Shown piece by piece: positions 1 to 4,071 of a DNA stretch of 11,268 nucleotides (the first letter of the stretch is position 1; the number at the start of each line of letters is the position of its first letter). The translations under genes and the position numbers were made by a program. The stretch lies in assembly GCA_031459385.1 (NCBI GenBank), contig JAVKIP010000041.1:1-11268 (forward strand). The letters run 5' to 3'. The notes below the pieces were generated by a model that did no database searches, was not told the DNA's origin, and saw only the letters and a program-made list of their open reading frames with translations. Source of the DNA: Candidatus Fervidifonticultor secundus. Lineage in GTDB: Bacteria > Sysuimicrobiota > Sysuimicrobiia > Sysuimicrobiales > Humicultoraceae.

Positions 1-159
1 GGCGGCCCCATTGAAGCTCCTCTCCTGTTTCTTCTGTTTCGCTCTCTGTGTGGTTTCCGCCGTTGAGAGACGGCGGCCCCATTGAAGCCACGTTGAGGCG
101 TACACAGTCGGAATGCCATATCGGTTTCCGCCGTTGAGAGACGGCGGCCCCATTGAAGC
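1..159 (+). CRISPR. CRISPR array, probable trailer end; 36-bp repeat GTTTCCGCCGTTGAGAGACGGCGGCCCCATTGAAGC, type I-G (I-U)-like
   Basis: Identical repeats at 53-88 and 124-159, plus a partial copy at 1-17 cut by the window edge. Unique 35-bp spacers at 18-52 and 89-123. The repeat has a 7-bp stem (CCGCCGT/ACGGCGG, loop TGAGAG) and a 3' ATTGAAGC end. Subtype and orientation are inferred from repeat style only; no cas genes are in the window. Confidence 0.93.
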
Positions 160-227
160 TACGTGCGGGCTTTCGCCATTCCCTTCATCTCCTGTTGCCG
201 CAGGATGGCCGCAGGCCCCGGTCGAGC
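160..227 (+). repeat. Probable last spacer (160-193, 34 bp) followed by a degenerate repeat-like sequence (194-227) that overlaps hicA
   Basis: GTTGCCGCAGGATGGCCGCAGGCCCCGGTCGAGC starts one spacer length after the last perfect repeat. By hand it aligns to the repeat at about 23/36 positions with a 2-nt gap (GTT.CCGC start, GGCCCC, AGC end). The same bases are antisense hicA codons, so part of the similarity may be coincidental. Confidence 0.45.
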
Positions 228-373
228 TCCGCATGGTCCGGAACGAAGACCTGTGCAAACAGCTCATCCCGTCGCAGTATCACGTGGCTGCCGGTCTGGC
301 GCTTGCAGGAAAAACCTGCGCGTTCCAGTGCCACCATGCAATCACGTCCCGAGATGCGTGGAAGTCTGGTCAC
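185..373 (-). CDS. hicA: HicA-family mRNA interferase toxin; C-terminus apparently frameshifted (possible pseudogene)
   Basis: MTRLPRISGRDCMVALERAGF..RQTGSHVILRR...VFVPDHAELDRG shows the HicA GF, GSH (catalytic His30) and VPxH motifs. GTG start overlaps the hicB stop (GTGA, 370-373). The expected LRAILRQ helix continues only in a shifted frame at about 208-210. Confidence 0.82.
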   Translation of the reverse strand: MTRLPRISGRDCMVALERAGFSCKRQTGSHVILRRDELFAQVFVPDHAELDRGLRPSCGNRR

Positions 374-2489: not shown

Positions 2490-3143
2490 ATGGGATCGTC
2501 GCCGCGACCAGTGGGGTTCCGGCGGGGGGACCCCGGGCGCGTTGCTGCTGTCGGCTGTGGGCGGAGCCGCGGCGCGCTCCGGTGCGCGTGGCCGGCGCTT
2601 GTCGCGCTGCTCGCGGCTTGCGCGGTCGTCCTGGCGGGCGAGGGGGCGCGGGGCGGCCCATCGGCGGTATCTGCCGGCCTGGGTGATGGGATGATCGTGC
2701 CCGGGCAGCGCATCGGGCTGCTCCGGCTGGACGCGACCGTCGCCGACCTGCGCCGCCTGTTCGGGCCCGGTCACCGCTGGCTGTTTCTCGCGGGTGCGCC
2801 GCCGACCTCCGACGCGGTCCACGACTACCTGATGCTCTACTGGCACTCGGTGCGCGCCGCCGCCACGACCCTGGACGGACAGATCGTGGCCTCGCTCGTC
2901 ATCCTCTACGATGCGGGGTTCCCCCGCTACCGGACACCGGACGGGCTCGACTTCCGGACGCGGCGCGCGCATGTGCTGGTGGTCTACGGGCCCCCGACGG
3001 CCGAGAACGCGCTGCTGCCCTACGGCATGCGGCTGATCTACGACCAGCGCGGCATCGCCTTCCGCTTCGACGGGGGCGGGTTCCTGCGCGAGATCAACGT
3101 CTTCCGGCCGGGCCGGGCCGGGCGCATCTGGCACCTGCTGTGA
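2490..3143 (+). CDS. Hypothetical exported/membrane-anchored protein with an internal two-fold repeat
   Basis: Strong GC3 codon bias from about 2690 onward. Hydrophobic stretch WPALVALLAACAVVLAG looks like a signal peptide or possible lipobox (LAAC). Two related segments end in LFGPG and VYGPP. Start uncertain: ATG 2490 follows GGGGAG, while the ORF track gives 2415. Confidence 0.65.
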   Translation: MGSSPRPVGFRRGDPGRVAAVGCGRSRGALRCAWPALVALLAACAVVLAGEGARGGPSAVSAGLGDGMIVPGQRIGLLRLDATVADLRRLFGPGHRWLFLAGAPPTSDAVHDYLMLYWHSVRAAATTLDGQIVASLVILYDAGFPRYRTPDGLDFRTRRAHVLVVYGPPTAENALLPYGMRLIYDQRGIAFRFDGGGFLREINVFRPGRAGRIWHLL

Positions 3144-3168
3144 GCCTGCGGCGGTACGAGGCGGTGCG

Positions 3169-4071
3169 GTGCGGGTGGTGATCGCCGGCGCGTCGGGGTT
3201 CATCGGGCGGGCGCTGACCGCCACGCTCGCCCGCCAGGGTGCAGACGTCCGCCGCCTGGTGCGGCGGGCACCTGCCGGGCCGGACGAGGTCCCCTGGGAC
3301 CCCGCGCGGGATACACTCGATCCCTCGGCCCTGGAAGGCGCCGACGCCGTCATCACCCTGGCGGGCCGGACGATCGGCCGCTGGCCCTGGACCCGTCGCG
3401 CCCGCGAAGAGATGGTGTCGAGCCGGGTGCGTTCCACGCGCCTGCTGGTCGAGGCGATCGGGCGGCTGCGTGTGCGGCCGTCGGTGTTCGTCTCGGCGTC
3501 GGCCATCGGCTACTACGGCGACCGCGGCGACGAGGTCCTCACCGAGGCCTCCGGACCGGGACAGGGCTTCCTGGCCGATCTCGTCCAGGCCTGGGAAGGC
3601 GAGGCGCGCAGGGCGCAGGACCTGGGCGTGCGGACCGTCTCCACCCGGTTCGGCCTGATCCTGGGGCGGGGCGGAGGCGTGCTGGCACCGCTGCTGCTGC
3701 CGTTCCGGCTGGGGCTGGGTGGTCGGCTGGGCAGCGGCCGGCAGTGGTGGAGCTGGGTGCACCTGGACGACGTCACGGCCGCCGTGGGGACCGCGCTGCG
3801 CTCGCCGGCGCTGGATGGCCCCGTGAACGTCGTGACCCCGGCCCCGGTACGGCAGCACGACTTCGCCCGCGTGCTGGGCGCGGTGTTGCGGCAACCCGCG
3901 GTGCTGCCCGTCCCGGCGTTCGCCCTGCGCCTGGTGCTGGGGGAGATGGCCGATGAGACGGTCCTGGCGAGCCAGCGTGTAGTGCCGGCCCGGCTGCAGG
4001 CGGCCGGGTTCGCCTTCCGGTGGCCCGACCTGCGGCCGGCACTGGAAGATGTCCTGCGAGTCGCGCCGTAA
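3169..4071 (+). CDS. TIGR01777-family NAD(P)-dependent epimerase/oxidoreductase (YfcH-like)
   Basis: GASGFIG Rossmann motif, SRVRST, SASAIGYYGDRGDEVLTE, GFLA..V..WE, RFGLILG, LGSGRQWWSWVHLDD, GPVNVVTP, and a C-terminal DUF1731-like SQRVVPARL..GF.F. Confidence 0.93.
   Translation: MRVVIAGASGFIGRALTATLARQGADVRRLVRRAPAGPDEVPWDPARDTLDPSALEGADAVITLAGRTIGRWPWTRRAREEMVSSRVRSTRLLVEAIGRLRVRPSVFVSASAIGYYGDRGDEVLTEASGPGQGFLADLVQAWEGEARRAQDLGVRTVSTRFGLILGRGGGVLAPLLLPFRLGLGGRLGSGRQWWSWVHLDDVTAAVGTALRSPALDGPVNVVTPAPVRQHDFARVLGAVLRQPAVLPVPAFALRLVLGEMADETVLASQRVVPARLQAAGFAFRWPDLRPALEDVLRVAP

Follow-up and report, generated by a model that had tools for sequence, protein, structure and literature searches.

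In many CRISPR arrays the terminal repeat keeps its 5′ end and loses identity towards its 3′ end, through substitutions or truncation (PMC8047081). CRISPR arrays have also been described beside toxin genes. In the Cas13a-HicAB locus of Leptotrichia (PMC13448076), a type VI array is reported to lie immediately downstream of hicA, which there encodes an intact toxin. In CreTA (PMC8501985, PMC9458426), a spacer-like unit is reported to sit between a good and a degenerate repeat beside a toxin gene, and the toxin is an RNA. HicA and HicB (PF07927 and PF15919) form type II toxin-antitoxin pairs.

Here we describe a locus in which the end of a CRISPR array runs directly into the 3′ part of a hicA gene. 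The junction involves the last, leader-distal unit of the array and, like a degenerate terminal repeat, retains identity at the 5′ end and loses it at the 3′ end; unlike such repeats, it keeps only 1-3 bases of the repeat (8 of 10 when bases shared with hicA are included) against at least 24 in relatives, and the rest is replaced by nameable coding DNA of the neighbouring gene, so that the cause of the “degeneration” is visible. The toxin-antitoxin genes are arranged as in other type II HicA/HicB pairs, in the order hicB-hicA with overlapping stop and start codons and with the invariant columns kept, but hicA has lost two predicted C-terminal helices and its frame is shifted. As in Leptotrichia, hicA directly adjoins the array, whereas here the two are convergent, hicA is broken, the repeat is type I-G-like, and Cas1, Cas2 and Csb2 were not found in the assembly. 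The likeness to CreTA, namely a spacer-like unit between a good and a degenerate “repeat” beside a toxin gene, is superficial: the toxin is represented by the remnant of a protein-coding gene and not by an RNA, the spacer-like unit carries no partial promoter match, the second “repeat” has no processing hairpin, and Csb2 was not found.

Anatomy of the array end

The window, the whole 11,268-nt stretch analysed here, comprises the first 11,268 bases of contig C36 in a 3.3-Mb draft assembly of 59 contigs (97.6% complete, 5.5% contamination). Because the contig starts inside the array, which was cut by the assembly, positions 1-17 (+ strand) hold only the 17-nt 3′ part of a repeat, and no more than two full array units follow. 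These consist of spacer 1 (18-52, +; 35 nt, 49% GC against 72% for the genome), a perfect 36-nt repeat (53-88, +), spacer 2 (89-123, +; 35 nt, 54% GC) and the last full repeat (124-159, +), which is likewise perfect, 36 nt long and identical to the copy at 53-88. Over the two full units and the 17-nt part, the direct repeats are identical, the period is 70-71 nt and the spacers are mutually unrelated. Folded on the copy at 124-159, the repeat forms a hairpin with an 8-bp stem (−14.1 kcal/mol, z-score −2.78).

The last full repeat is followed by a terminal segment of 34 nt (160-193, +; 35 nt with base 194) that is spacer-like in length and GC content, its 56% GC being matched or undercut by only 3.6% of random genomic 34-mers. 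Spacer lengths thus run 35, 35 and then 34-35 nt, and the position at which the sequence-only reading had expected the next repeat, 34 nt past the last perfect one, is borne out: GTTGCCGC starts at 194, in phase with the array. Exact searches with 160-193 and with the spacer at 89-123 gave no match for either in viral_contigs; as the bona fide spacer went unmatched too, the outcome carries no information on 160-193.

On the opposite strand lie the hicA remnant (185-373, −; PF07927), an open frame of 62 codons of which residues 1-53 are homologous to HicA, and an intact hicB antitoxin gene (370-576, −; 68 aa, PF15919) whose stop overlaps the hicA start. The remainder of the window is ordinary chromosome, encoding an amidohydrolase, an epimerase, a peptide ABC transporter, an M28 peptidase and a short-chain dehydrogenase.

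Type and orientation of the array

A repeat identical at 36 of 36 positions occurs on contig C1 of G016, a relative from another genus of the same family, where it is the first repeat after a Csb2/Cas1 operon and a leader. On one strand, the order in G016 is Cas_GSU0054/Csb2 (E 4.8e-45), a 583-aa frame with a Cas1 domain (E 2.1e-96), a short ORF, ∼230 nt and the repeat. The length of the 583-aa frame suggests a Cas4-Cas1 fusion, the short ORF is by its position a putative cas2, and the ∼230 nt are a putative leader. Csb2 is the signature of subtype I-U, now named I-G, and the repeat of the window is accordingly called type I-G-like. In three relatives, the array ends at its 3′ side, in the same orientation, with a degenerate last repeat that keeps 24, 27 and 31 of 36 positions; these supply the normal terminal repeat that the sequence-only reading had proposed to look for. 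The leader side in G016 and the degenerate repeats at the 3′ end in the three relatives together indicate that the + strand of the window is the sense strand of the array, which puts hicA tail to tail with the array, on the side away from the leader.

Cas1, Cas2 and Csb2 gave no match in the window's own 97.6%-complete assembly, and the six weak matches to the cas3 core were all below cut-off; since this is a draft in 59 contigs and cas genes may be unbinned, their absence is not proven. The Csb1 model (PF09617) matched nothing in any genome, controls included, and carries no information. The repeat is absent from the same-genus genomes G001 and G002 with up to three mismatches allowed. Its words in the four sequencing runs of the hot-spring study described below reach summed depths between thousands and tens of thousands, whereas the contig has 7-13; together with the 36/36 identity in G016, this points to a type I-G-like repeat that seems widely shared in the community, suggesting horizontal spread. 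Counts over the 41 genomes compared include two unpublished genomes (G010 and G019), and none of the conclusions depends on these two.

Another orphan array of the same repeat family is present in the relative G031; its flanks, covered over 17 kb and 9 kb, contain no cas genes, and Cas1 was not found in the genome. This array was of no help in assigning the subtype, for which G016 sufficed. Its leader-side repeat (locus L049, contig C1, about 593-626) has lost one arm of the hairpin through an internal deletion.

In the window's own genome, the only trace of the repeat on other contigs is a lone 29-nt 3′ part on contig C42 (locus L050, 1-781). There, the contig begins within a transposase gene of the IS256/Mutator family (PF00872, E 5.4e-33); the repeat part lies at 753-781, ∼50 nt past the 5′ end of the transposase gene, and is followed by non-array DNA and then an ABC-transporter permease gene. 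This looks like an insertion sequence in a repeat of another array end, or in a solitary repeat. The 29-nt part was considered as the reciprocal product of the array-hicA junction and rejected, as it starts at repeat base 8 and adjoins the IS256-family transposase gene.

The truncated hicA gene

The hicA product matches PF07927 with 43.1 bits (cut-off 27, E 4.6e-11), over profile positions 1-48 of 58 only, while hicB matches PF15919 with 37.5 bits (cut-off 27) and aligns end to end with hicB of three relatives. Of 27 candidates from a search of 5.8 billion proteins, 26 were hits, including the window's own product. The other 25 HicA homologues are 71-82 aa long and align mostly to about the first 53-54 of the window's 62 residues; the aligned share of the window protein is at most 85% for 22 of the 25 and 87-94% for the other three. 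Residues 1-53 are 64-79% identical to 73-aa homologues, retain the GSH histidine, and keep nine of nine invariant and six nearly invariant family columns, which implies a recent break in hicA or continuing selection on the remnant.

The tail TLRAIIRxAGLSVDEFxxLL, conserved as far as the solved HicA-like protein 1WHZ, is present in all 25 homologues, which answers the earlier suggestion to look for an intact hicA 3′ end elsewhere. At the same place the window has ELDRG-LRPSCGNRR followed by a stop, and its DNA one frame over still encodes AILRQ. Aligned with hicBA of the three relatives, the window is 4 nt short inside the GTLRA codons (near 210/211), and beyond the codon for Q (197-195) no likeness is left; relative to the 73-aa form, the 12 final codons and the stop codon are missing. 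Compared with 17 homologous hicA genes, one of which (L008) is itself frame-broken, identity is 62% over codons 1-53 and 69% at 195-209 and falls to 26%, the random level, at 160-194. DNA-level BLAST matches to hicBA of the three relatives likewise begin at query 195/196. The claim that HicA similarity stops at the array junction is thus upheld, as is the claim that the C-terminal end has given way to spacer-like DNA, 160-193 being unrelated to the 3′ ends of the homologues. The loss goes beyond the single helix then named: in an AlphaFold model of a 73-aa homologue (26-row alignment, pLDDT 94.9), helices are predicted at 52-61 and 66-72, and both are missing from the window's present frame. 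From the end of homology at 195-197 and the frame-shifting 4-nt deficit it follows that hicA is a pseudogene, and its toxin function has presumably been lost.

The heptamer CCGCAGG occurs twice, at 198-204 and 209-215, 11 nt apart and flanking the 4-nt deficit. Slippage between these direct repeats could have produced the frameshift.

The missing 3′ end was not recovered elsewhere in the own genome by tblastn with five C-terminal peptides (best E 0.35; at ∼23 aa their sensitivity is low). Scans of metagenomes and genomes for hicA returned no copy of the fused form, though records of the own genome may be excluded from them, and no match extended past query residue 54 except at L044 (residues 1-61, 43% identity). 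An identical 50-aa product is also encoded on a 26.6-kb contig. A second, independently decayed hicA was seen among the relatives at L008 (G020:C180), where a 7-nt gap against the other genes breaks the frame; G020 is a 76%-complete draft, and an assembly error is possible there.

The repeat-like stretch at 194-229

The stretch at 194-229 (+) had been described as a 23/36 mimic of the repeat that is at the same time antisense to hicA. The second part of this description holds: the DNA is antisense to codons E49 to R55 and then, after the frame slip, to AILRQ, and is therefore hicA-derived, as its description already implied. The first part holds only in places. Ungapped, 14 of 36 positions agree with the repeat, and 23 shared bases are reached with four gap columns, a gapped score equalled by 0.42% of 40,000 random 36-mers of the genome (0.76% of 40,000 48-mers in a semi-global version). 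The likeness is concentrated in a junction patch at 194-203 (+), where 8 of 10 bases equal the first 10 of the repeat, a match reached by 0.1% of 200,000 random 10-mers; the score of the last 26 nt is no better than chance (18% attain it). No repeat-type hairpin was found in 194-229 (z-score +0.87 against −2.78 for the true repeat), and the 3′ handle bases of the repeat are lacking. The stretch accordingly does not show the retained 5′ half with hairpin that marks a terminal degenerate repeat.

It had been allowed that close HicA homologues might show the same repeat similarity and the same tail. The tail differs in 25 of 25, and at the same hicA site in 18 homologous loci, those whose match covers residues 1-53/54 after 15 of 33 loci with partial matches had been dropped, the repeat likeness is 13-19 against 21 in the window, with a background mean of 16.7 (sd 1.4); two of the 18 (L025 and L039) have disrupted frames, and their segment may not be homologous. 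Since the homologues are at background level, hicA carries no hidden repeat. Bases 195-203 are hicA coding sequence, present in homologues too, and the same site in relatives has 6 of 10 bases equal to the repeat start (counted by eye). Peculiar to the window are the join itself (G194, a shared TT, then GCCGCAG of hicA) and the small deficit that creates GGCCCC. The crossover point probably lies within GTT.

The junction in four sequencing runs

The join between array and hicA is not an assembly artefact. In four of four sequencing runs from one hot-spring study, one of which may be the window's own source, a contig extends from 130-134 across 160-229 into hicA with no differing letter. These contigs are 3,624 nt (X1, covering 132-1000), 2,050 nt (X2, 130-1000), 482 nt (X3, 131-612) and 578 nt (X4, 134-711) long. 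No loose contig end at 193-197 that would mark another form was found in the four runs. The leftward link of the last repeat to spacers 1 and 2 comes from the original assembly only.

Genomic context and conservation

In the same-genus genomes G001 and G002, similarity to the window begins only at 760/763, and the stretch between hicB and the amidohydrolase gene (577-749) is for this reason taken as specific to this genome. In G002 (locus L004, contig C1), the region downstream of the orthologous amidohydrolase gene (2662-3398) contains, by eye, a different toxin-antitoxin-like pair of AbrB/MazE-like and PIN-like ORFs and neither hicBA nor an array, which makes the site look like a small variable islet.

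DNA relatives of hicBA, at 71-75% identity, are found in three relatives belonging to other genera, where hicBA is complete and has no array nearby. At 33 further hicA loci from metagenomes and genomes, the repeat was not found at a threshold of at least 24 of 36 positions, and a general array finder placed a CRISPR array next to none of 36 related hicA loci. The proposed survey of how often hicBA abuts such arrays therefore yielded this locus and no other among those covered. The GC content of hicBA is 59-63%, against 72% for the genome.

Origin of the junction

The joining of the array to hicA is probably the scar of a microhomology-guided deletion, or of illegitimate recombination, at the 5′ edge of a repeat. 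A single illegitimate recombination would have involved the start of an array repeat and a site in hicA that agrees with it at 6-7 of 10 bases, linking the leader-distal (trailer) end of the type I-G-like array to the 3′ part of the convergent hicA. The array-side break would lie within the first 1-3 bases of a repeat and the hicA-side break after the codon for Q of AILRQ, and the DNA lost between them would comprise the remaining repeats and spacers of the array, its trailer and the final 12 codons of hicA. The frameshift may have arisen in the same untidy repair or later. The 8/10 likeness to the repeat 5′ end probably guided the join and would partly have been created by it. A microhomology-driven join was among the options first put forward for this locus, and it fits every test applied, namely the sharp break, the 8/10 patch, the lost 3′ end and the presence of only the fused form in four runs. 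The homology break falls within 1 nt of the expected start of the next repeat; by a rough estimate, a break within 2 nt of a repeat start has a chance of ∼5 in the 70 positions of an array unit, so that the phase by itself says little. A simple two-ended deletion does not account for the 4-nt deficit 13-17 nt from the join, and the spacer-repeat boundary is also the cut site of Cas1-Cas2, of which a plain deletion model makes no use. A relative in the pre-deletion state was not found; we infer the ancestral state, the direction of the event (a deletion, not a capture of hicBA) and the role of microhomology from the features above.

The same scar would also result from an event in the opposite direction, in which a hicBA segment, already truncated or truncated in the act, was captured beside the end of the array, either through illegitimate recombination or within a mobile islet, while the array lost nothing. 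The foreign-looking GC content of hicBA, the occurrence of its DNA relatives in other genera, the different toxin-antitoxin-like pair at this site in G002 and the IS256-family element that struck another repeat copy in the own genome all favour such a capture. Against it, 160-230 contains no mobile-element end, integrase or target duplication, and the normal array ends of the three relatives keep at least 24 nt of the last repeat where at most 3-8 nt are left here, so the array side must have been cut as well; we regard a capture as unlikely. The join might alternatively have been made by the integrase, in a half-site or ectopic integration, Cas1-Cas2 linking a spacer end at the array repeat to the repeat-like hicA site and deleting what lay between. 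Off-target integration by Cas1-Cas2 has been reported (PMC6698737, PMC6895254, PMC8390005), the join lies within 1 nt of the spacer-repeat boundary, and the hicA site shares 8 of 10 bases with the repeat start. The other 26 nt of the target are, however, neither repeat-like nor able to form the hairpin, no Cas1 or Cas2 was found in the assembly, and, judging from the leader upstream of the repeat in G016, the join sits at the end away from the leader, the wrong one for the integrase. Full-site integration, moreover, duplicates the 36-nt target on both sides of the spacer. Here the spacer-like segment is not flanked by such a duplication and has a perfect array repeat on its left, which also goes against the earlier proposal that the array or a spacer was integrated within hicA, and an integrase-made join is thus very unlikely; if correct, the locus would document a chromosomal rearrangement brought about by Cas1-Cas2 in nature.

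A working link between array and toxin had been envisaged as well, in which read-through pre-crRNA, antisense to hicA/hicB mRNA, is processed at the pseudo-repeat into a crRNA-like RNA against the toxin; in a variant of it, the array RNA tempers HicA as in the Cas13a-HicAB locus. Since array and hicBA are convergent and no terminator-like site was found within 1-900, read-through in both directions is plausible, and in the published locus, with an array immediately downstream of hicA, a crRNA is reported to lower HicA toxicity (PMC13448076). In the window, by contrast, hicA is truncated and frameshifted, 194-229 lacks the repeat hairpin and the 3′ handle bases, Cas1, Cas2 and Csb2 were not found and no cas3 core rose above cut-off in the 97.6%-complete assembly, and the arrangement is not conserved (0 of 36 related hicA loci beside an array). 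Type I effectors, furthermore, target DNA and not mRNA. No promoter-like site was found in 577-749, and the longest matches of 160-193 to other parts of the window measure 9 nt, with none of them in 577-749; the segment is therefore no CreA-like guide directed at the hicBA promoter. Taken together, the two versions are extremely improbable, and judged from sequence a CRISPR-toxin coupling would be unsupported rather than disproved. Next to no credence attaches to the remaining explanations, that the junction is a chimeric assembly, or that 194-229 is an ordinary terminal repeat decayed by point mutations which merely resembles hicA. A contig start in the array and a repeat common to far more abundant populations in the same samples do invite mis-joins, and terminal repeats are often degenerate (PMC8047081). 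The contigs of four of four runs nevertheless cross 160-229 without difference, which disposes of the doubt already voiced about the assembly, while 195-229 is at least 69% identical to hicA of other genomes and continues into a full hicA/hicB match, and true terminal repeats in the three relatives keep 24-36 nt.

Implications

For annotation, the array end should be placed at 193/194 and hicA called a pseudogene. A CRISPR-toxin coupling finds no support at this locus, given that hicA is broken, that related hicA loci do not share the arrangement, and that Cas1, Cas2 and Csb2 were not found in the assembly. If the join is the deletion scar favoured here, the locus would be a clean natural example, of little mechanistic weight, of how a deletion or join extending into a neighbouring gene can remodel the far end of an array. 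What looks like a degenerate last repeat can be foreign coding DNA and not a decayed repeat.
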